The notes under the pieces are model-generated. The model saw only the letters and a program-made list of their open reading frames with translations. It made no database searches and had not been told where the DNA came from. Position numbers and translations under genes: made by a program. A stretch of DNA of 32,000 nt from Prochlorococcus sp. MIT 0801 (GTDB lineage Bacteria; Cyanobacteriota; Cyanobacteriia; PCC-6307; Cyanobiaceae). The first letter of the stretch is position 1. Each line of letters starts with the position of its first letter. Shown here piece after piece: positions 342 through 23,844 of this stretch. The stretch is taken from NCBI RefSeq assembly GCF_000757865.1, contig NZ_CP007754.1, positions 1,590,001-1,622,000 on the forward strand, read 5' to 3'.

Positions 342-1691
342 ATGACACAAATAATTAATAAAGATGAGATTCAAGAGACCCCTTCAAAAAGATTGACTAT
401 AAAAACGGCTAATAATATTGATCAGGCTCAGCTTGAGCTCAAGATAATTACTGATAGAACATCTGGCAAAGTTCAAGATAAAGCAATAAAAGTAGTTGAC
501 GATATTCTTAAAAACATTAGTGAAAGAGGGGATGAAGCTCTTAAAGAATACACCTCTCGCTTTGATGGATTTCTAGCTGAAAAATTTCAAGTTCCATCAA
601 AATTAATACTGAAAGCTTGGGAAGAGACTCCCAAGGATTTACAAGATTCACTTTTATTGGCAAAAAAAAGAATTGAAAAATTTCATAGTCTTCAATTACC
701 AAGAAATATCAGTTATACTGGTCCCCATGGTGAATCATTAGGACGGAGATGGAGTCCTGTTGAAAAAGCGGGAATATATATTCCTGGCGGAAGGGCCGCC
801 TATCCAAGCACTGTTTTAATGAATGCGATTCCTGCTTTTGTTGCAGGAGTAAATCAAATCATCATGGTCTCGCCAGCTAACTCAAAAGGGGACTTAAACC
901 AAACCGTTCTAGCTGCGGCTCATATTACTGGAATAAACAAAGTTTTTCGTATTGGAGGCGCTCAGGCCATTGGAGCGCTTGCTAGTGGGACTCAATCAAT
1001 TCCAAAAGTAGATGTAATTACTGGACCAGGTAATATTTATGTAACTTTGGCAAAGAAAAAAGTTTATGGAAAGGTAGGAATTGATTCACTGGCTGGTCCA
1101 AGTGAGATCCTAATAATCGCTGACCAATCAGCCAAATTGGAACATGTTGCTTCTGATATGTTAGCTCAATCTGAACATGACCCTTTAGCTTCGGCAATAC
1201 TAATCACTACTAATAAAGAATTAGCAGAAAAATTACCTTCAGAAATTGAACGCCAATTAATTAATCATCCAAGATTAAAAATATGCCAAGAATCAATCTC
1301 TAAGTGGGGTTTAATAGTCATTTGTGATAGTTTAGAGACTTGCGCAAAATTAAGCAATACATTTGCTCCAGAACATCTTGAATTACTTGTAGAGGACCCA
1401 AAAGAATTATCTAAAAGCATCAATAATGCTGGAGCAATATTCATGGGACCATGGAGCCCAGAAGCTATTGGAGATTATCTTGGGGGGCCAAATCACACTC
1501 TTCCTACCTCAGGGACTGCAAGGTTTGCTGGTGCTCTTGGAGTAGAAACTTTTATGAAAAATACTTCAATTATTGATTTTTCAAGAGAAGCTTTTAATGA
1601 AAATAAAAATGCAGTTGTGCATTTAGCTAATAGCGAGGGATTGCATAGTCACGCAGAATCGATACGAATTAGAGATTCTAAATCTTGTTAA
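342..1691 (+). CDS. hisD: histidinol dehydrogenase
   Basis: 449-aa ORF with HisD hallmarks: [42 protein letters not shown]. The exact start was not verified. Confidence 0.95.
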
Positions 1692-2424: not shown

Positions 2425-3654
<1,230 letters not shown>

Positions 3655-3749
3655 CTAGTAATATTTAGAAGCCTGACGGTACCTCTTTGAATAGGGGCGG
3701 GTCAAAACTTAAACCGCTCGGGCTTCCTGCCCGACTTCGACACTGCCTT

Positions 3750-4220
3750 TTGTCTAATCAAACCGTTTCAGAATTGAAGGTTCTTACAGCGAAATCAGCG
3801 ACTAATTATGGCTTTGATGTAACTGATTTTAAGATGTTAACTCATCTAAACCCCTTATCAATTCAGCTAAATATCCGACACAAAAATCCTGACAAGAAAG
3901 TCTCTATTGATGACTGTTCTATGCTTAGTCAACATATTGATGAAGCTATCCAAGGTTCTTCAATAATTGATCAACCTTTTAATCTTGAAATCAGCAGCGA
4001 GGGAATTGGTGATTTTTTAACAGATGAAAAAGATTTTAAAACATTCAAAGGTTTTCCTATTGAAGTTACTTATCAGGATTTAAAAAAAATTGAACAACAA
4101 ACAAACGGTTTGCTTCTAAAAAGGACAGATAATCAACTTCATATAAATCAAAAGGGGAAAACTCAACGAATTCCGGTTGAAGACGTTATCCAAGTCCGAC
4201 TCACAACACCCTCCGGTTAA
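3750..4220 (+). CDS. rimP: ribosome maturation factor RimP
   Basis: Lies immediately upstream of nusA, as in the conserved rimP-nusA-infB operon. Size and sequence (..ATNYGFDVTDFKMLTH..LSIQLNIRH..) fit RimP. The ORF is open from TTG 3687, but that 21-codon extension is unusually GC/Arg-rich and hairpin-forming, so TTG 3750 is preferred. The start is uncertain. Confidence 0.8.
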   Translation: MSNQTVSELKVLTAKSATNYGFDVTDFKMLTHLNPLSIQLNIRHKNPDKKVSIDDCSMLSQHIDEAIQGSSIIDQPFNLEISSEGIGDFLTDEKDFKTFKGFPIEVTYQDLKKIEQQTNGLLLKRTDNQLHINQKGKTQRIPVEDVIQVRLTTPSG

Positions 4221-4275
4221 AATCTAGATAGTAATTATCTAACCCAATCATTCTCATCTCTACATCCCATCATCG

Positions 4276-5715
4276 ATGGCTCTTGTTCTACTCCCAGGCT
4301 TAAATAACTTAATTGAAGACATTAGTGAGGAAAAAAAGCTTCCATCACAAGTCGTCGAAGCTGCTTTGAGAGAAGCACTTTTAAAAGGTTATGAACGATA
4401 TCGAAGAACTCTTTATTTAGGTATCAGTGAAGATCCTTTTGAAGAAGATTATTTTAGTAACTTTGATGTTGGATTGGATCTAGAAGAGGAGGGTTACAGA
4501 GTTTTAGCAAGTAAAATAATAGTTGAGGAGGTTGAGAGTGATGATCATCAAATAGCAATTGTTGAGGTTAAGCAAGTTGCTGATGACGCTCAAGTTGGCG
4601 ATACCGTTGTACTAGATGTGACTCCAGAGAAAGAAGATTTTGGAAGAATGGCTGCATCTACAACCAAGCAAGTTTTAGCTCAAAAATTGAGAGATCAGCA
4701 GAGAAGAATGATTCAAGAGGAGTTTGCTGACCTAGAAGATCCAGTTCTAACTGCCAGGGTCATTAGATTTGAAAGGCAGTCAGTTATTATGGCAGTTAGC
4801 TCTGGTTTAGGTAGACCAGAAGTAGAAGCAGAGCTTCCAAGACGAGATCAATTGCCAAATGATAATTATCGAGCAAACGCAACATTTAAAGTATTTCTCA
4901 AAGAAGTTAGTGAAATTCCTAGGAGAGGGCCTCAACTTTTTGTCAGCAGGTCAAACGCCGGATTGGTTGTATATTTATTTGAGAATGAAGTTCCTGAAAT
5001 TCAAGAAGGTTCAGTACGTATTGTTGCTGTTGCTCGTGAAGCAAATCCACCTTCAAGAGCAGTAGGTCCCAGAACAAAAGTAGCTGTTGACAGTATCGAA
5101 AGAGAGGTGGACCCTGTTGGAGCATGCATTGGTGCTAGAGGGGCTCGCATTCAACAAGTGGTAAATGAACTTCGTGGAGAAAAAATAGATGTAATTCGTT
5201 GGTCTTCAGACCCTGTTCAATACATCTGTAACTCATTAAGTCCTGCAAGAGTTGAAGTAGTTAGACTTGTTGATCCTGAAGGTCAGCATGCTCATGTCTT
5301 GGTTCCACCAGATCAACTTAGCCTCGCAATCGGAAGAGAAGGGCAAAATGTAAGACTTGCTGCAAGGCTCACAGGATGGAAAATAGATATCAAAAATTCA
5401 CAAGAATATGATCAAGCCACTGAAGATTCCGAGGTTGCAGAATTAATTTCTCAAAGAGAAGAAGAAGAATCTTTACAGAGAGAAGCTGAGAAGAGATTAG
5501 AAGCAGAACAAGCAGCTAGAGCTGAAGAAGATGCACGTTTAAGAGAGCTTTACCCCCTTCCAGAAGACGAAGAAGAGTTTCAAGATGAGCAGTTGTCAGA
5601 CATCGATAATAATGAAACAGAATCTGAATCTGAAGAAAGTGATATTGAAGAAACAATCGAAGAAGGGGTTGCTTCTGAAGATAAAATAATTACAGAAGAG
5701 GAAGGAACCCGGTGA
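4276..5715 (+). CDS. nusA: transcription termination/antitermination factor NusA with an acidic C-terminal tail
   Basis: 479 aa with an N-terminal domain, S1 and KH motifs (GACIGARGARIQ, LAIGREGQNVRLA). The last ~90 aa are a Glu/Asp-rich low-complexity tail. Confidence 0.95.
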   Translation: MALVLLPGLNNLIEDISEEKKLPSQVVEAALREALLKGYERYRRTLYLGISEDPFEEDYFSNFDVGLDLEEEGYRVLASKIIVEEVESDDHQIAIVEVKQVADDAQVGDTVVLDVTPEKEDFGRMAASTTKQVLAQKLRDQQRRMIQEEFADLEDPVLTARVIRFERQSVIMAVSSGLGRPEVEAELPRRDQLPNDNYRANATFKVFLKEVSEIPRRGPQLFVSRSNAGLVVYLFENEVPEIQEGSVRIVAVAREANPPSRAVGPRTKVAVDSIEREVDPVGACIGARGARIQQVVNELRGEKIDVIRWSSDPVQYICNSLSPARVEVVRLVDPEGQHAHVLVPPDQLSLAIGREGQNVRLAARLTGWKIDIKNSQEYDQATEDSEVAELISQREEEESLQREAEKRLEAEQAARAEEDARLRELYPLPEDEEEFQDEQLSDIDNNETESESEESDIEETIEEGVASEDKIITEEEGTR

Positions 5716-17446: not shown

Positions 17447-18232
17447 CTATCTATTGTTTGGTAGCAAAATCAATGAAATTACACAAAGAACACTAATAAG
17501 AGGGCCAGGAGGCAAATTCATAACCATAGCAAGCGAAAAACCAATGATCGATAAAGCTAATCCAAATATGGAAGATCGAACCATAGCAACCCTCAGAGAT
17601 CTAGCTTTCTGTAAACCCAACAAAGTTGGTGTTGAGAGTAACGCAATCACAAGGATGACCCCAACTGCTGACATTGAGCTCACAATGACAAGTGCAGTGG
17701 TAAATCCCAGAGCTAAATTTAAAAAAGACACATTAACGCCACTTGAAGCAGCTCCTTCTGGGTCTAAACCAATATGAACAAGCTTGTCGTAACCAAAAAG
17801 CATTAAGCAAATGAATGCCGAGAACGCAATCAAAGTTCTTAACAAATCGCTCAAATTTGAAGTTAATAAATCTCCAAACAAAACAGCCTCCAAATCAATC
17901 CTGATTCCAAGTAGAGGTATAAGCAAAACACCAAGTCCCATCGAACCAGCAAGAATTGTATTCATTACAGCTTCATAATTTTGATTTTTTTTATTTGTCA
18001 AACTCTCTGCTGCAATAGCTCCCACTAATCCGCTTAAGACACCTCCAATAGATGGGTCAATCCCAAGCGCCATAGCCAAGGCAAGTCCTGGCAAAACACA
18101 GTGTGAAATTAAATTTACTTGAAGAAGCCTTTTATGAGTTATCAATACAGTTCCCATGGCAGGGCAAAGCACTCCTGAAAAAGAAGTTATCAGAAGAGGA
18201 ATGATCCACCAATTTGTATTGATAAAAGACAT
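17447..18232 (-). CDS. znuB: zinc/manganese ABC transporter permease (ABC-3 family)
   Basis: 261 aa, polytopic, with ZnuB/ABC-3-type sequence (..VLITHKRLL..ISHCVLPGLALA..). It sits in a cluster with zur, znuC and znuA. Confidence 0.9.
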   Translation of the reverse strand: MSFINTNWWIIPLLITSFSGVLCPAMGTVLITHKRLLQVNLISHCVLPGLALAMALGIDPSIGGVLSGLVGAIAAESLTNKKNQNYEAVMNTILAGSMGLGVLLIPLLGIRIDLEAVLFGDLLTSNLSDLLRTLIAFSAFICLMLFGYDKLVHIGLDPEGAASSGVNVSFLNLALGFTTALVIVSSMSAVGVILVIALLSTPTLLGLQKARSLRVAMVRSSIFGLALSIIGFSLAMVMNLPPGPLISVLCVISLILLPNNR

Positions 18233-18285
18233 TAAGCAAATGATTTAGTATGGTCAGTTAGACAGATCAAATTAAGATCTTGCTA

Positions 18286-18687
18286 ATGAATACAAGCAAG
18301 CCTGACATAACTAAGAGACAGCAACAACTTCTCAATGAACTCAAGAGATGTCCTGATGAGTTGAGTGGACAAGAACTGCATAGAAAATTTCATAATGGTC
18401 AAAAGGCAATGGGTCTGACGACTGTATATAGGAACTTGCAAGTGTTAGTAAAGCAAGGTTTGATCCGCTCGAGACACCTCCCTAACGGCGAGGTCCTTTA
18501 TGCCCCAGTTGAAAGAGATATTCATCATTTAACTTGCGTAAGCTGCGGGGAAACTACTCGATTGCAGGGATGCCCCGTCAAAACAATGCACATACCCCAG
18601 AAAGCCTCTAAAAAATTTGAGCTGTTGTTTCATACTCTTGAATACTTTGGCCTCTGCCAAAATTGTTCCCAAGGATTGAATGCTTGA
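18286..18687 (+). CDS. zur: Fur-family metalloregulator, Zur-like
   Basis: Winged-helix region (GLTTVYRNLQVLVKQGLI), then HHLTCVSCG and LCQNCSQ CxxC pairs typical of Fur/Zur. Divergent from znuB. The track ORF begins at TTG 18280; ATG 18286 is preferred. Confidence 0.88.
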   Translation: MNTSKPDITKRQQQLLNELKRCPDELSGQELHRKFHNGQKAMGLTTVYRNLQVLVKQGLIRSRHLPNGEVLYAPVERDIHHLTCVSCGETTRLQGCPVKTMHIPQKASKKFELLFHTLEYFGLCQNCSQGLNA

Positions 18688-18714: not shown

Positions 18715-19410
18715 CTATATTTTCCATCTCAGATAATTAATTGAACTAAGTTTTTCCTGCACCTCTTCAGGGTTACCAGAAGCCAAAATAATCTTATCTA
18801 GAACAACAACCTTGTCATAAGCATTTAATGATGTTCCCCAATCGTGACTACTGACGAACACTGTCAATCCAGAATCAGCTAACTGACGGATGATTAATAG
18901 GAAATCTTCCTTTGCGGGGGGATCAAATGCGGCACAAGGTTCATCAAGTAGAAATATTTCGGCAGGATTCATCAAGGTTTTTGCGAGTAATGCTCTTTGT
19001 TGCTGACCACCGGATAAAGAATCAAGTCGCCTTTTTGCTAAATGAGATATTCCAACACGTTGAAGAGCCGCTTCTAATTCACAACAAGTTGATTTCGAAT
19101 GATTGACTCGACCTAAAGAAACTAATCCTTCAACAGTAATTGGAAAATTCCAATTAAGCTTCCCCCTCTGAGGCATTAAAGCCACTTGAGATCGATTATT
19201 TCTAAGTGGTTTTCCGTCAACAGTAATTTCTCCTTGATCCGGCTTACTACTTCCTTGCAGCAAGCTTAATAATGTGGACTTACCAGCACCATTGGGACCA
19301 ACAAGAGCAGTCAAAGTACCTTGCTCAAGCTTAAGAGAAACCTTGCTTAAAGCAGGTTTGATTTTACTCGAATAGGAATATGTCACATTTTCAGCAATCA
19401 AACTAGACAT
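18715..19410 (-). CDS. znuC: zinc ABC transporter ATP-binding protein
   Basis: Walker A GPNGAGKST, signature LSGGQQQR, Walker B FLLDEP. ATG at 19410; the track adds one TTG codon at 19413. Confidence 0.92.
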   Translation of the reverse strand: MSSLIAENVTYSYSSKIKPALSKVSLKLEQGTLTALVGPNGAGKSTLLSLLQGSSKPDQGEITVDGKPLRNNRSQVALMPQRGKLNWNFPITVEGLVSLGRVNHSKSTCCELEAALQRVGISHLAKRRLDSLSGGQQQRALLAKTLMNPAEIFLLDEPCAAFDPPAKEDFLLIIRQLADSGLTVFVSSHDWGTSLNAYDKVVVLDKIILASGNPEEVQEKLSSINYLRWKI

Positions 19411-19460
19411 CAATTAGAGGATTTGCTGACAAGAAACATAATATACTTGCCAAGACCAAA

Positions 19461-19479
19461 TGAAAATGATTATCGTTTT
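19461..19479. promoter_or_regulatory. probable Zur box in the znuC/znuA divergent promoter region
   Basis: TGAAAATGATTATCGTTTT contains an 8-1-8 near-palindrome, AAAATGAT-T-ATCGTTTT, with 7/8 arm complementarity. It lies 21 nt upstream of the znuA ATG and 48 nt upstream of the znuC start. Fur-family operators are typically AT-rich palindromes at this location. Confidence 0.6.
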
Positions 19480-19499
19480 AGATACGCTAAATATTCTTG

Positions 19500-21017
19500 A
19501 TGTCGAATTTTTCTAATCAGTCCAAAAAGGCTAAACCCATAATCAATAAAACATTTCTCAAAAGTTCTCTTGTTGCTGGAGCATTTTTATTTTCTGGAAT
19601 TAATCAAAGTGCACAGGCAAATTCAAAACCAATTGTTGCCGTAGAGCCATTAGTCTGCGATGTCGTTTCTGCGATTGCACCACCTTCAACACCTGTAACC
19701 TGCTTAATTGATAGAAAACAAGATGTTCATGATGTCAAAATCACTCCAAGGCAAGCTCAAACACTAAAGAGTGCAAACCAAGTATTTACTCTTGGTTCAG
19801 AGATGACCCCTGCAATGAAAAAATGGTTAGATAATCCTTTAACTGTTGTTGTCGGCGTAAGTGCAATAGAAATAGACGATCATCATGACGATCACGATGA
19901 TCATTCAGCTTCTAAGGATGATGACCACGATGATCATTCAGCTGCTAAACATGACGATCATGATGACCATGATGATCATAGCGATAGCCACGGAGAAGGA
20001 GATTTTGAATGGGCTGGTGTTTTTGATCTTTCAGCAGGAACATACAAATGGTCTTTTGCCAAAGTTGATGGAGACTATGCTGATCCTGCAATGAAAATGG
20101 TTATTCTCAACTCTGGTGATATTGAAGCATCAGAAGAGCTTGCTAAAGAATTATTAGGTTCTAAGAATTCAGAAACCAAACGCAATAATGACAAACTTGT
20201 TGCGCAGGAAAAAGCTTATTTTCTTTCATTCAATGAAAAGAGAGATACCACAACATTTACTGTAGAAATCAAAAAAGCTGGTAAATATGCATTCTTTACT
20301 GAGCATATGCCTTTTGAATTTGAAGCCGACGAACATTTCTTTAAGGATATTTCAGGCGACGATGTTGAACCGATTGCTCAAGTCCCAGATGAAGGCGATC
20401 ACCATCATCACCATGACCATGGTGGGCTAGATCCTCATATCTGGCATGACCCTCATAACATCATCAAGATGGGAAATGTCATTTCTAAAAATATCAATAA
20501 GAAAATTTCCTTCTTTGACAGAGAAACAAAAAAAGTTTTAAAAGAGAGGACTGAAGCCGTTAATTCTATTTTGGAAGATCTCGATTTATGGACTCAAAAA
20601 CAAGTTGCCACAATTCCTACTGATCGAAGGACAATCGTTTCTAAGCACAAAGCGATGGAATATTACGGAGATGCATTTGGCTTGAAGACTTTGAGTCTAT
20701 TAGATTTCCTTGGTGATTCTTCCAGCCTTAGACCAGAGACTATTTCAACGGTAATAGCTGAGTTGAAAGAAGAAAACGTGAACGTATTATTCGCTGAGCA
20801 AAAGCCTCCTTCCAAGCTATTGAAAAATCTGAGCAGACAAACTTCCACCCCTATTGCAAGAAATCAGATCTTTGTTGATGGTCTAATGCTAGAGGGGAAT
20901 ACTGTTTCAGTAGCAGTACACAACACATGTACAATTGTGGATTCACTTGGTGGAGAATGTGACGAGAAAGAGGGTGATGAACTTGAGAGTAAATGGAATG
21001 ATTTAACTAACCCTTAA
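19500..21017 (+). CDS. znuA: zinc ABC transporter substrate-binding protein with a split His/Asp-rich loop and a ~105-aa inserted domain
   Basis: About 505 aa, versus the ~300-340 aa I recall as typical for ZnuA. It has a signal sequence, cluster A-I SBP motifs (DVHDV, GLDPHIWHDP, KHKAMEYYG) and His/Asp tracts DDHHDDHDDH...HDDHDDHDDH and DHHHHHDH. These tracts flank an extra domain starting at FEWAGVF. Confidence 0.9.
   Translation: MSNFSNQSKKAKPIINKTFLKSSLVAGAFLFSGINQSAQANSKPIVAVEPLVCDVVSAIAPPSTPVTCLIDRKQDVHDVKITPRQAQTLKSANQVFTLGSEMTPAMKKWLDNPLTVVVGVSAIEIDDHHDDHDDHSASKDDDHDDHSAAKHDDHDDHDDHSDSHGEGDFEWAGVFDLSAGTYKWSFAKVDGDYADPAMKMVILNSGDIEASEELAKELLGSKNSETKRNNDKLVAQEKAYFLSFNEKRDTTTFTVEIKKAGKYAFFTEHMPFEFEADEHFFKDISGDDVEPIAQVPDEGDHHHHHDHGGLDPHIWHDPHNIIKMGNVISKNINKKISFFDRETKKVLKERTEAVNSILEDLDLWTQKQVATIPTDRRTIVSKHKAMEYYGDAFGLKTLSLLDFLGDSSSLRPETISTVIAELKEENVNVLFAEQKPPSKLLKNLSRQTSTPIARNQIFVDGLMLEGNTVSVAVHNTCTIVDSLGGECDEKEGDELESKWNDLTNP
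19875..19991 (+). repeat. repetitive coding DNA for the His/Asp-rich loop (18-nt exact repeat with a 33-nt period)
   Basis: cacgatgatcattcagct occurs at 19893-19910 and at 19926-19943. The surrounding sequence is gat/cat-rich and encodes (D/H)n. Confidence 0.85.
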
Positions 21018-21074
21018 CTTTTACAAATACAATCCTGTCTACATTGATAAAATGCAGACAGTATTGACACAAAA

Positions 21075-21392
21075 ATGTTTCCAACTAAAGGGTTTAACGC
21101 CTATAGACAACACTGGGAAGATCAGGCAAGTTTTATGGATAAAGCGCCATGGGATAGAGATAAAATCTTAAAACTTACTATCTCAACTGACTTCGATGAC
21201 AATTTAAAAGAACTTCAATTTTCAAATCATTCGCTTAAGAAAGAAAATGGAAAAAATACAGTAAGATTAAAAGTTCCATACAATTATTTTGAGCTAGATG
21301 ATTTTGAATCAAAGTCCCTAGATTTATTGGGAATACAAGAGAATTGGCTAACTGATATTTCTTTTGACAACTCTCATTGTTCACATTATTAG
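21075..21392 (+). CDS. hypothetical protein (105 aa) between znuA and the COG0523 gene
   Basis: ORF only, with no recognised domain or signal peptide. It ends ..NSHCSHY. It fits the gap between neighbouring genes on the same strand. Confidence 0.4.
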   Translation: MFPTKGFNAYRQHWEDQASFMDKAPWDRDKILKLTISTDFDDNLKELQFSNHSLKKENGKNTVRLKVPYNYFELDDFESKSLDLLGIQENWLTDISFDNSHCSHY

Positions 21393-21400
21393 TTAAAGAA

Positions 21401-22783
21401 ATGAGCATTAAGCAAAAAGTACCGGTTACCATATTGACTGGTTTCCTAGGATCTGGAAAAACTACTCTACTTAATCGAATCTTGAGCGAAGAACACGGTA
21501 AAAAAATAGCTGTTATTGAAAATGAATATGGTGAAGTTGGTATTGATCAAGGATTAGTCATCAATGCTGATGAAGAGGTCTTCGAGATGTCGAATGGTTG
21601 CATTTGCTGCACCGTTCGGGGTGATCTTATTCGTGTACTTGGAAACCTCATGAAGAGGCGAGACAAATTTGACTATGTATTAGTTGAAACTACTGGCCTT
21701 GCTGATCCTGGTCCTGTCGCTCAGACATTCTTTATGGACGATGAAATCCGTGAGGAGTTTTCACTTGATGGAATAGTCACACTTGTTGATGCAGCCCATA
21801 TAGAGCAACAACTTGGTCGAAGTGATGAGAGTTCGGAGCAAGTTGCCTTTGCTGACGTCCTTGTCCTAAATAAAACCGATCTAGTTTCAGATGAATCACT
21901 CGACAACTTAGAATCACGGCTACGCGATATGAATCGTATGGCTCGTGTCATACGCAGTAAACAAGCAGACGTCTCAATTGATACTGTGCTAAATCTAAGT
22001 GCTTTTGATTTAGATCAAGTACTTCAGCGTCGTCCAACTTTTCTTGAACCAGAATACCCATTTGAGTGGACAGGTGTTTTTTCACTTGAAAAAGGTCGCT
22101 ATGAACTTACGCTCGAAGAAGGTCCAGACCCCACAATGTCTCTCGTCCAGTTATTAGATCAAGGTAAAGACGAGACAGCTCTTAACACAGGTGCTGAATC
22201 ATGCGTGAGACTCTACGCAGAACAAGAACAACTTATAAATCCAGGGGATTTGGTTCCAATCGGCAAGCATGTGAGCCTTCAACTTCAATCCGAAGGGACT
22301 AAGTCCTTCTTCATAGATGTTGATAAGGCAAGGGATATAGGTCTATTCACGCAACATACAGCTGAAGAATTTAATATGAAATTAACGAAAGTAAATACTC
22401 CTTCTACAGACCATATAGATAATGATCAGAACATCTCTACAATTTCTCCAATAGCTGAGAGGGTTTGGGTAGCTGAACACGAACATGATGACGAAGTAGG
22501 TTCATTCGCTATCGAGCGAGACGGTAACGTAGATCCAGAAAAACTCAATAGATGGCTAAGTCGACTTTTGTCTGAGAAAGGTGTGGATATATTTCGCACT
22601 AAAGGTTTCATTAGTTATGCGGGTGAATCTAAGCGAATAGTTTTTCAAGGAGTACACATGCTCTTCACAGCACAACCTGATAAAGAATGGGGCAATGAAC
22701 CTCGCCGTAACCAACTCGTCTTTATCGGTAGAAATCTTGATGAAGTAGAAATGAGAAAGGAGTTTGATAAATGTCTGGTATAG
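21401..22783 (+). CDS. COG0523 (CobW/YjiA/ZigA-type) G3E metallochaperone GTPase with an inserted ~105-aa domain
   Basis: GFLGSGKTTLLN (Walker A), ENEYGE, the GCICCTV metal motif, VETTGLADP, LNKTD, and a C-terminal CobW_C-like region (..RTKGFISYAG..IVFQGVH..). Between the G domain and the C-domain lies an insert starting at FEWTGVF, followed by AEHEHDDE. ATG 21401 is preferred over the track start at 21377. Confidence 0.9.
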   Translation: MSIKQKVPVTILTGFLGSGKTTLLNRILSEEHGKKIAVIENEYGEVGIDQGLVINADEEVFEMSNGCICCTVRGDLIRVLGNLMKRRDKFDYVLVETTGLADPGPVAQTFFMDDEIREEFSLDGIVTLVDAAHIEQQLGRSDESSEQVAFADVLVLNKTDLVSDESLDNLESRLRDMNRMARVIRSKQADVSIDTVLNLSAFDLDQVLQRRPTFLEPEYPFEWTGVFSLEKGRYELTLEEGPDPTMSLVQLLDQGKDETALNTGAESCVRLYAEQEQLINPGDLVPIGKHVSLQLQSEGTKSFFIDVDKARDIGLFTQHTAEEFNMKLTKVNTPSTDHIDNDQNISTISPIAERVWVAEHEHDDEVGSFAIERDGNVDPEKLNRWLSRLLSEKGVDIFRTKGFISYAGESKRIVFQGVHMLFTAQPDKEWGNEPRRNQLVFIGRNLDEVEMRKEFDKCLV

Positions 22784-23844
22784 AAGCATTTAGTCCAAAG
22801 GGAATGCTTCATGAAAGTTGGTCTGCTCAAGCTAGCGACTACGCGATTGTCTGCGGCTGGGCACTACAAGGTAAAACTTTTTTAGTAGGTGACGTCGCTG
22901 GTGGGCTTTATGCATTTGAGGGAATATCTGGAAAGCTCATTTGGCAAATAAAAGACATACATAAAGGCGGCTTACTCGCAATGTCTATACATCCAAATGG
23001 AAAGACTTTTGCAACTGCTGGCCAAGATGGACATGTAAATATATGGGAAAGCCAAGAGGGTACGTCAACTAAAACTATAGAACTTGGGAAAGGTTGGGTT
23101 GAGCACATCAAGTGGTCCCCAGACGGAAAATTTTTAGCTGTAGTTTTTACTAAATACGTCTATGTTTTTGATGATCAAGGTCAAGAACATTGGCGATCAG
23201 AGGAGCATCCCAGCACTGTCAGCGCGATTGCTTGGTCTAATTCAAATGAATTAGCAACAGCATGCTATGGCCAAGTAACTTTTTTTGATGTCGTAAACGA
23301 CAAGATCAATCAAAAGTTGGAATGGAGAGGCTCACTAGTATCTATGGTGCTTAGTCCAGATGGTGACATAGTGGCATGCGGCAGCCAAGATAATTCTGTT
23401 CATTTCTGGCGTCGTTCAACTGATCAAGATTCAGAGATGACAGGCTACCCAGGTAAACCAAGCCACCTAGCTTTTGATCAAACCGGCACAGTCCTTGCTA
23501 CTGGGGGTAGTGATCGAGTGACGGTTTGGAGTTTTCAAGGCGATGGTCCTGAGGGCACTGTACCAGGAGAGTTAATGCTTCATACGGAACCCATTTCATG
23601 CCTTTCTTTCTCACATAGCGGGATGCTTTTAGCTTCTGGCGCGAGAGATGGTTCAGTTTTTTCTTGGTTTCTCCAAAAAGATGGTCAGGGTGATCCAGTT
23701 GGTGGTGCATTTGCAGGTGACCTTGTAAGCCAAATCGCTTGGCATCCTGATGACACTGCCTTGGCTGCAATAAATGCAAACGGAGGAATTACGGTTTGGG
23801 AGTTTAAGGTTCGGACGAAAACCTCACCTCAAGGAATCGGATAA
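22771..23844 (+). CDS. WD40-repeat (beta-propeller) protein translationally coupled to the COG0523 gene
   Basis: 357 aa with repeated WD-type units (DGHVNIWE, DNSVHFWR, DRVTVWSF, DGSVFSWF, GGITVWEF). Its ATG lies 13 nt inside the 3' end of the COG0523 ORF. Confidence 0.85.
   Translation: MSGIEAFSPKGMLHESWSAQASDYAIVCGWALQGKTFLVGDVAGGLYAFEGISGKLIWQIKDIHKGGLLAMSIHPNGKTFATAGQDGHVNIWESQEGTSTKTIELGKGWVEHIKWSPDGKFLAVVFTKYVYVFDDQGQEHWRSEEHPSTVSAIAWSNSNELATACYGQVTFFDVVNDKINQKLEWRGSLVSMVLSPDGDIVACGSQDNSVHFWRRSTDQDSEMTGYPGKPSHLAFDQTGTVLATGGSDRVTVWSFQGDGPEGTVPGELMLHTEPISCLSFSHSGMLLASGARDGSVFSWFLQKDGQGDPVGGAFAGDLVSQIAWHPDDTALAAINANGGITVWEFKVRTKTSPQGIG

Follow-up and report, generated by a model that had tools for sequence, protein, structure and literature searches.

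A Folded Module Common to ZnuA and a COG0523 GTPase of Prochlorococcus Recurs in Metal-Transport Proteins of Distant Lineages

Why should a periplasmic zinc-binding protein and a cytoplasmic GTPase, encoded almost side by side in a marine cyanobacterium, carry the same insert at the position where their relatives carry histidine-rich segments? This question is raised by a 32,000-nucleotide (nt) stretch of the genome of Prochlorococcus sp. MIT 0801 (GCF_000757865.1, contig NZ_CP007754.1, positions 1,590,001 to 1,622,000). We refer to the whole stretch as the window and use its numbering. A first-pass annotation made from the letters alone had reported that a segment of ZnuA aligns end to end with a segment of the nearby COG0523 protein. 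The open reading frames (ORFs) and coordinates are as it described them. The znuA gene (19497–21017, plus strand) encodes a cluster A-I zinc-type substrate-binding protein of 506 amino acids (aa) with an insert. The second gene (21377–22783, plus strand) encodes a G3E GTPase metallochaperone of 468 aa, counted from a TTG start, also with an insert. The shared segment begins with FEWAGVF at residue 170 of ZnuA and with FEWTGVF at residue 229 of the GTPase. Its length, initially put at ∼105 aa, is corrected here to ∼120–125 aa because it includes one further C-terminal strand.

The two segments are homologous. When whole ZnuA was compared with whole COG0523 by BLASTP, residues 170–338 aligned to residues 229–395 (E = 2e-8, 25% identity). 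Smith–Waterman alignment of the segments scored 95, against 27.0 ± 4.7 over 2000 shuffles (z = 14.4, with 0 of 2000 reaching the score), and the whole proteins gave z = 14.0. We also built two independent profiles, one from ZnuA- and ZIP-type modules alone and the other from COG0523-type modules alone. The hidden Markov model (HMM) of the former matches residues 227–345 of the window COG0523 protein (E = 6.5e-19), and that of the latter matches residues 169–277 of the window ZnuA (E = 4.6e-20). Aligned to each other by hhalign, the two profiles gave a probability of 99.8% (E = 9.6e-29). Thus, the claimed likeness is real by both shuffled controls and profile tests. With the family HMM, the window contains exactly two copies of the module.

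The genes lie ∼360 nt apart and both segments have D/E/H-rich surroundings, which might be taken to favor a trivial origin. However, z = 14, reciprocal HMM matches near 1e-19, an hhalign value near 1e-28, and blocks that are not themselves of low complexity leave a negligible probability that the similarity arose by chance or from composition. A recent local copy between the neighboring genes is equally far-fetched, since the copies are only 25% identical and belong to separate subfamilies, and since the COG0523 type occurs in many genomes without an adjacent ZnuA (e.g., in L086). Modules of the COG0523 type have a mean identity of 36% within their type and 22–25% to other types; the ZnuA, ZIP, and stand-alone types are 31–33% identical among themselves. 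Because the COG0523 type is an old, separate subfamily, the window copies do not reflect local duplication. The adjacency noticed at first reading is genuine, but it is no sign of local exchange.

In both hosts, the module occupies the flexible, His-rich position. The window ZnuA matches Pfam PF01297 (E = 7.5e-47, 29-bit cutoff) in two stretches that are split by the insert, and among NCBIfam models it matches AztC (E = 1.4e-30), with the AztC, MntC, and ZnuA models all matched below their equivalog cutoffs. It has the features of a zinc-type cluster A-I binding protein, namely a His-rich loop, an export signal, and linkage to znuB, znuC, and zur. The signal peptide, read from the sequence, ends in AQA before an N at about residue 41. 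Alignment to PsaA (4UTP) gives His78, His314, His384, and Asp461 as the primary site. The corresponding PsaA ligands, which we take to be His67, His139, Glu205, and Asp280, match in order except that His384 replaces Glu205. By this alignment the site is of the zinc type, having His where manganese proteins have Glu. The same alignment puts the insert after the N-lobe (∼residue 125) and ahead of the DPH314 ligand motif, where the His-rich loop canonically lies. All parts of this loop read on the plus strand. An upstream His/Asp-rich arm of 40 residues (IDDHHDDHDDHSASKDDDHDDHSAAKHDDHDDHDDHSDSHGEG, residues 126–165, 19872–19991) leads into the module (residues 166–292, 19992–20372; module HMM E = 6.7e-40 over 169–292, 130 bits). 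A downstream His-rich arm (DEGDHHHHHDHGG, residues 298–310, 20388–20426) then directly precedes DPH314. A weak match of the NCBIfam ZrgA model to ZnuA residues 88–167 covers only the His/Asp-rich run, and was discarded as compositional.

In the COG0523 protein, the module takes up the linker between the G domain (cobW, PF02492, residues 16–192, E = 1.1e-61) and the CobW_C domain (PF07683, residues 375–467, E = 2.7e-26). The best NCBIfam matches are YjiA-like PRK11537 (E = 1e-77) and ZigA (E = 5e-59), and the GTPase and CxCC motifs are intact (GFLGSGKTT, GCICCT, ETTGLADP, and NKTDL). The module copy spans residues 225–350 (22049–22426, plus strand; module HMM E = 1.2e-54 over 228–351, 178 bits). 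Between it and CobW_C lies an acidic/His patch, AEHEHDDE (residues 366–373, 22472–22495, plus strand), which is kept as AQHEHDDEVGS in homologues. That this linker is where other cyanobacterial COG0523 proteins carry their His-rich stretch, as the first-pass annotation suggested, agrees with Barnett et al. 2012 (PMC3323870). BLASTP, the shuffles, hhalign, and the PsaA alignment together bear out the annotation's central claim of one domain at the flexible His-rich position of two unrelated host families. Since ZnuA has a signal peptide and the COG0523 protein has none, the copies reside in different compartments, as it had also stated. The GTPase start listed at 21377 is a TTG that overlaps the preceding 105-aa ORF, whose stop is at 21390–21392. 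The gene more plausibly starts at an in-frame ATG at 21401, just past that stop, and residue numbers would then be 8 lower.

What kind of domain is this? AlphaFold2, run on two separate alignments, predicts a jelly-roll-like beta-sandwich with one helix for both modules. The mean local confidence (pLDDT) and predicted template-modeling score (pTM) are 82.1 and 0.76 for the ZnuA type, and 83.9 and 0.73 for the COG0523 type. Both models have the same order of elements: three strands, one helix, and five to six strands. Foldseek found no match in the PDB at E ≤ 1e-3 for either model. The weak neighbors (TM score ≤ 0.43) are generic jelly rolls, such as Epa1 PA14, GOLD, TNF/C1q, lectin, and capsid proteins. 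No entry in Pfam, NCBIfam, or the PDB matches the domain, which the first-pass annotation had not recognized. The ZnuA segment matches no Pfam-A (2025) family at E ≤ 1, and neither window module matches any NCBIfam 20.0 family at that threshold. The sole Pfam match to the COG0523 segment, APH_6_hur, was rejected (E = 0.011, 15.6 bits against a 27-bit cutoff). The module region of eight stand-alone relatives likewise lacks Pfam and NCBIfam matches, and the family profile finds nothing among PDB sequences (best E 0.21). Since the module is missing from Pfam-A and NCBIfam, it is invisible to annotation that relies on those libraries.

The family has the signature (F/W)-E-W-x-G ... G-x(0-3)-D-P-x-M ... 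F-T-x-H-x-P-x-E-F, and the E-W-x-G, G..D-P-x-M, and H-x-P-x-E-F residues are complete in both window copies. The signature residues are E171, W172, G174, G192, D196, P197, M199, L243, F254, H270, E274, and F275 in ZnuA, and E230, W231, G233, G249, D251, P252, M254, H327, E331, and F332 in COG0523. Over 162 full-length domains, and in ZnuA numbering, conservation is highest at His270 (98%), followed by Glu274, Phe275, and Trp172 (93% each), Glu171 and Gly192 (92% each), Gly174 (91%), Leu243 (90%), Asp196 (88%), and Met199 (86%). All ten positions are kept in each host class. The most conserved polar residues are His270, Glu274, Glu171, and Asp196, and they persist in all classes, the cytoplasmic ones included; their COG0523 equivalents are H327, E331, E230, and D251. 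Extracytoplasmic types additionally conserve Glu276 and His280, and the COG0523 type has an EPEYP lead-in. In both predicted models, the four polar residues occupy strand ends: they precede beta1, precede beta3, or follow beta8. This placement is compatible with a single site at one end of the sandwich.

The module extends far beyond the two proteins of the window. We searched a joint profile against 1.84 billion representative proteins and read domain architectures from that search together with Pfam scans. It matched 638 cluster representatives at E ≤ 1e-3, of which 254 also passed E ≤ 1e-10. Among 138 new top matches, about 22 are ZnuA-type and about 33 are COG0523 proteins, and 83 are neither; Pfam assigned 20 of the 53 long proteins in this last group to ZIP transporters and 4 to divergent ZnuA. 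Indeed, beyond ZnuA and COG0523 the fusion partners are almost all transition-metal transport or trafficking proteins. In a CDF exporter of Paenibacillus solisilvae (P0132), the module follows ZT_dimer in the cytoplasmic tail, with His-rich runs on either side. It is N-terminal in a CusB/HlyD-type adaptor (P0156), and it lies within a His-rich loop of the cobalt uptake proteins CbtA (P0101) and CbiM (P0103). Many short members are stand-alone: a signal peptide or lipobox is joined to the module and to His-rich tails (e.g., P0018, P0135, P0153, and P0168). Thus, one structural element is common to an uptake protein, a cytoplasmic chaperone, and at least five other metal-transport families.

Copy number and source vary as well. 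There are one to three copies per protein in ZnuA and one or two in ZIP. Bacterial sources comprise Prochlorococcus, Pelagibacteraceae, metagenome-assembled genomes (MAGs) of Rhodospirillales and Rhizobiaceae, and Paenibacillus; the archaeal source is a Candidatus Thermoplasmatota archaeon. Eukaryotic members come from the dinoflagellate Amphidinium massartii (MMETSP/EukProt) and from marine eukaryote transcript catalogues (MERC). The ZIP-fusion contig that was checked for eukaryotic origin carries no poly-A tail; we accept a eukaryotic origin because of the MMETSP/EukProt and MERC members. Several individual proteins deserve mention. A metagenomic ZnuA of 816 aa (P0074) has three module copies. 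P0018 (185 aa; L001 215–772, JGI 3300009373) consists of a membrane anchor, the module, and a His-rich tail, and its gene is followed by genes for a small membrane protein and a sensor kinase, not by a metal transporter. P0082 and P0200 bear, behind the signal peptide, an additional Cys-rich motif at the N terminus, CAC..A..LGF. Neither protein has a Pfam match, and the motif may be another uncharacterized extracellular element. A 1723-aa PKD/T9SS protein (P0187) with six partial stretches was not counted, since no domain in it passed the HMM threshold.

His-rich flanks, defined as at least 3 His within ∼30–40 residues, accompany the module in most settings. They occur in 23 of 24 ZnuA-type domains, 38 of 43 stand-alone or other domains, 13 of 25 ZIP-type domains, and 17 of 27 COG0523-type domains, in the last case downstream only. 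The recurring unit is thus a module between two His-rich arms, inserted into loops or termini of metal-handling proteins.

What might such a unit do? We somewhat favor the reading that it is an accessory element for the capture and hand-off of a divalent metal, Zn2+ and possibly Co2+, with Glu171, Asp196, His270, and Glu274 as the candidate site. We infer metal binding from the fusion partners, the His-rich flanks, and the conserved Glu/Asp/His/Glu residues; which residues act as ligands and which way the metal is passed are likewise inferred. The range of partners (ZIP, CDF, CbtA, CbiM, CusB-like, and secreted stand-alone proteins) makes capture and hand-off much more plausible, and the neighboring zur gene, Zur-box-like site, and znuBC genes provide contextual support for a metal-binding module. 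Under this scheme, the flexible His-rich arms would gather metal ions, and the folded module would hold one ion at a defined site, probably formed by the four residues. The ion would then be passed to the primary site of the host: the ZnuA cleft, the entrance of a ZIP or CDF pore, or the CxCC site of COG0523. In ZnuA, the cassette would sit at the mouth of the His78/His314/His384/Asp461 cleft and act as a periplasmic antenna that raises the probability of capture at very low zinc. In COG0523, the module takes the place of the His-rich segment that joins the G domain, with its CxCC site, to CobW_C, and it would hold or transfer metal on its way to or from clients. The variation in ZnuA from one to three copies is as expected for an avidity or antenna element.

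Several observations weigh against this proposal. One His and three carboxylates do not make a classical high-affinity zinc site, and the tetrad would suit Mn, Fe, Co, or a low-affinity transit site equally well. The weak fold neighbors (lectin, TNF/C1q, and capsid proteins) bind proteins or ligands rather than metal. Conservation of the Trp, Gly, Met, and Phe residues may reflect structure alone. Finally, an upstream His-rich arm is present in just 1 of 27 COG0523-type copies.

These points leave room for other functions, none of which we consider probable. The first is that the module is a docking, scaffolding, or oligomerization domain that does not itself bind metal, for example a tether to an outer-membrane or periplasmic donor in ZnuA and to a client or the WD40 protein in COG0523. 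Its weak fold neighbors do serve recognition and trimerization (TNF family, C1q, Epa1 PA14, and GOLD), the COG0523 type is always accompanied by an overlapping WD40 gene in Prochlorococcus, and CobW_C has been viewed as a region that may mediate protein interactions (PMC11672702). However, the polar tetrad is retained across at least seven host families that are unrelated to one another, that lie on both sides of the membrane, and that come from three domains of life. No common protein partner is possible across such a range. Moreover, the stand-alone forms comprise only the module and His-rich tails, and no COG0523 or WD40 gene adjoins the alphaproteobacterial ZnuA copies. Docking is thus unlikely, and the single shared docking surface that the first-pass annotation had entertained fares poorly for the same reason, given the many other hosts on both sides of the membrane.

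Still less probable is that the module is a metal-sensing regulatory plug, whose occupancy would alter packing and thereby gate the ZnuA cleft or a ZIP or CDF pore, or tune the COG0523 GTPase. The His-rich loop of ZnuA has been suggested to act in regulation (Wei et al. 2007, as cited in PMC8786288), and the module sits in the linker that joins the G domain to the C-terminal domain, whose geometry controls GTP hydrolysis by COG0523 (PMC13001444). The copy on the CDF exporter tail also suits cytoplasmic sensing, as capture for uptake would make no sense there. By comparison, tandem duplication or triplication and free-standing secreted forms better fit capture or buffering.

The least probable of these functions is recognition of an organic Zn or Co complex, such as a metallophore or natural seawater ligand, from which the module would strip or pass on the metal. 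Open-ocean zinc is mostly organically complexed, the fold resembles lectin-like jelly rolls, and open-ocean organisms (Prochlorococcus, SAR11, and eukaryotic plankton transcripts) are overrepresented among its members. We nonetheless regard this as very improbable, since there are cytoplasmic copies (COG0523 and the CDF C-terminal tail) and a soil Paenibacillus member, and since the conserved residues are classic metal ligands rather than the aromatic/polar pocket of a sugar-type receptor.

How did the module reach its hosts? Within Prochlorococcus, the order of module-bearing znuA, module-bearing COG0523, and WD40 is found in every locus with enough sequence. The window ZnuA module shares 97% identity with its counterpart in Prochlorococcus sp. 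AG-363-A03 and 94% with the one in MIT 0916, and module and ZnuA scaffold diverge in step (0.66–0.84 for both, ratio ∼1.0). The comparison with Alphaproteobacteria is very different: between Prochlorococcus and alphaproteobacterial ZnuA, the module is 60–73% identical and the scaffold only 23–30% (ratio 2.2–2.9). The window module itself is 69–73% identical to those of three module-bearing alphaproteobacterial ZnuA proteins, from a Rhodospirillales MAG (L027, ORF 3026–4966), a Rhizobiaceae MAG (L042), and a Pelagibacteraceae single-amplified genome (L071, ORF 3392–4927). Between the Rhodospirillales and Rhizobiaceae proteins, module identity is 80% against 33% for the scaffold. In a neighbor-joining tree without support values, the alphaproteobacterial modules fall inside or beside the Prochlorococcus clade. 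Because the module evolves no more slowly than the scaffold within Prochlorococcus, these comparisons suggest lateral transfer at the level of the cassette, below that of the gene, between different ZnuA scaffolds. The window bears no compositional trace of such transfer, as the module's G+C content and third-position G+C content (GC3) equal those of its flanks. Modules that are ∼70% identical across phyla, on scaffolds of ∼27% identity, would make a clean example of domain-level lateral transfer.

Two tandem ZnuA modules occur in eleven species-level Prochlorococcus genomes (L030, L034–L041, L046, and L067), and in L039 (ORF 3161–5029) they are 72% identical to each other. This natural variation in copy number could track the zinc regime, and the occurrence of one or two modules within the genus could be correlated with the zinc regimes of the ocean.

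More broadly, the beta-sandwich and its two arms may form a self-contained, laterally exchangeable zinc antenna cassette that moves below the gene level between unrelated proteins and distant lineages (Prochlorococcus, SAR11, other Alphaproteobacteria, archaea, and algae) and that, through its presence and copy number, aids Zn or Co acquisition at picomolar concentrations by the most abundant microbes of the ocean. The cytoplasmic COG0523/CDF subtype would then be a second, intracellular adaptation. We advance this wider view tentatively, as a real possibility to which we would not yet commit ourselves.

It is useful to compare the module with known systems. One half of the finding has a precedent. 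Barnett et al. 2012 described an insert of ∼150 aa without the His-rich character in cyanobacterial COG0523 "branch 1a" as a possible extra domain, and this insert, in Prochlorococcus and Synechococcus WH8102 and beside WD40 and zur/znuABC, is the COG0523 half reported here (PMC3323870). The text searched links the insert neither to ZnuA nor to other proteins, and gives no family, signature, or distribution. We found the shared module, the ZnuA link, the signature, and the distribution nowhere in the literature searched, and a prior description elsewhere is possible. Relative to that literature, only the COG0523 insert had been noted, and the ZnuA link and the wider family are new.

The His-rich loops of ZnuA from Synechocystis and E. 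coli occupy the same scaffold position, directly before the second His ligand (DPH), and their presumed role is the same, namely to raise local zinc or regulate access (PMC8786288). However, the known loops are disordered and His/Asp/Glu-rich, whereas here one to three folded domains of ∼120 aa are embedded in them. The His-rich linker of zinc-related COG0523 proteins is regarded as a hallmark of metallochaperone activity (PMC3323870); here it is replaced by a folded domain with few His, and only the AEHEHDDE patch is left. The closest functional analogy is to ZinT/YodA and the ZinT-like C-terminal domain of AdcA, which are folded zinc-binding accessories either joined to a cluster A-I zinc-binding protein or working with one (PMC7858048). 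These are unrelated to the module in sequence and fold, as it has no Pfam or NCBIfam match and they are absent among its Foldseek PDB matches. Furthermore, ZinT is appended, whereas the module is inserted in a loop and also occurs in cytoplasmic proteins. Given a functional resemblance to ZinT/AdcA-C and His-rich loops without homology, the module would therefore be a new, unrelated accessory metal-handling domain.

ZrgA (PF10986) and AztD are likewise extra periplasmic zinc-binding components encoded beside zinc ATP-binding cassette (ABC) importers, and AztD passes zinc directly to its binding protein (PMC6689063). Unlike the inserted module, they are separate polypeptides of unrelated families. 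In the SAR11 locus L071, a ZrgA-family gene (PF10986, E = 1.6e-46) and a DUF1826 gene, at 645–1325 (minus strand) and 4946–5590 (plus strand), flank the module-bearing znuA; the locus also contains zur, znuB, and znuC. This genuine ZrgA ORF is not matched by the module HMMs.

The module may be relevant to several problems. First, it bears on how Prochlorococcus, SAR11, and eukaryotic phytoplankton acquire Zn and Co from picomolar seawater. Second, it bears on the mechanism of the COG0523 "zinc chaperones." Finally, a family model would improve the annotation of several hundred protein clusters.

The surrounding genes place both hosts in a zinc-uptake locus, in a window of 37.6% G+C. Upstream lie a znuB-like ABC permease gene (17447–18232, minus strand; its family is read from sequence and context rather than from a profile scan), a Fur-family regulator gene that is probably zur (18280–18687, plus strand; NCBIfam PerR/Fur/Zur models, E from 4e-13 to 7e-6), and a znuC-like ABC ATPase gene (18715–19413, minus strand; Walker A GPNGAGKST) that is divergent from znuA. 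The probable zur gene adjoins znuA throughout the Prochlorococcus loci compared, and the position of znuB within a conserved zur-znuABC cluster has been described (PMC3323870).

Between znuC and znuA lies a Zur-box-like 7-1-7 palindrome, AAATGAT-T-ATCGTTT (19464–19478, plus strand). It is the window's best match to AAATGATNATCATTT, with 1 mismatch, and it coincides in part with the −10-like hexamers of the two divergent promoter-like sites. It was picked up by the pattern search and not by the inverted-repeat scan. A Zur box at a matching location in the Prochlorococcus intergenic region has been reported (PMC3323870). Synechococcus WH8102 has the same layout, and there Zur represses the equivalent cluster and low zinc induces it (PMC9337993). 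By analogy, the palindrome probably acts as a Zur box here.

An ORF of 105 aa (21075–21392, plus strand) separates znuA from the COG0523 gene and has no Pfam or NCBIfam match. It is kept only in the window's own Prochlorococcus clade (L003–L025). Other Prochlorococcus clades lack it, and their znuA–COG0523 gap is ∼80 nt. Two unknown genes that follow znuA in Synechococcus WH8102 are under Zur control (PMC9337993). A hairpin with an 11-bp stem (CTGTCTAC...GCAGACAG, 21035–21061) begins 18 nt past the znuA stop. The terminator scan flagged it on the minus strand only, and it could serve attenuation or processing between znuA and the genes that follow.

Downstream, a WD40 beta-propeller gene (22771–23844, plus strand; Pfam WD40 E = 2.4e-30) overlaps the COG0523 stop by 13 nt. 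It adjoins COG0523 in essentially all Prochlorococcus loci examined, an association already noted in PMC3323870. Because its product lacks a signal peptide, it is no AztD-like chaperone of the periplasm. The product may be a client or partner of the GTPase. In another locus (L083 2595–3375, GCA_028281605.1), a 207-aa protein consists of a COG0523-type module alone, followed by a 57-aa CobW_C fragment. It sits in a FUR / PRA-CH / DksA locus typical of Zur regulons, and the arrangement resembles a COG0523 gene that has decayed or been split within a Zur-regulon-like cluster.

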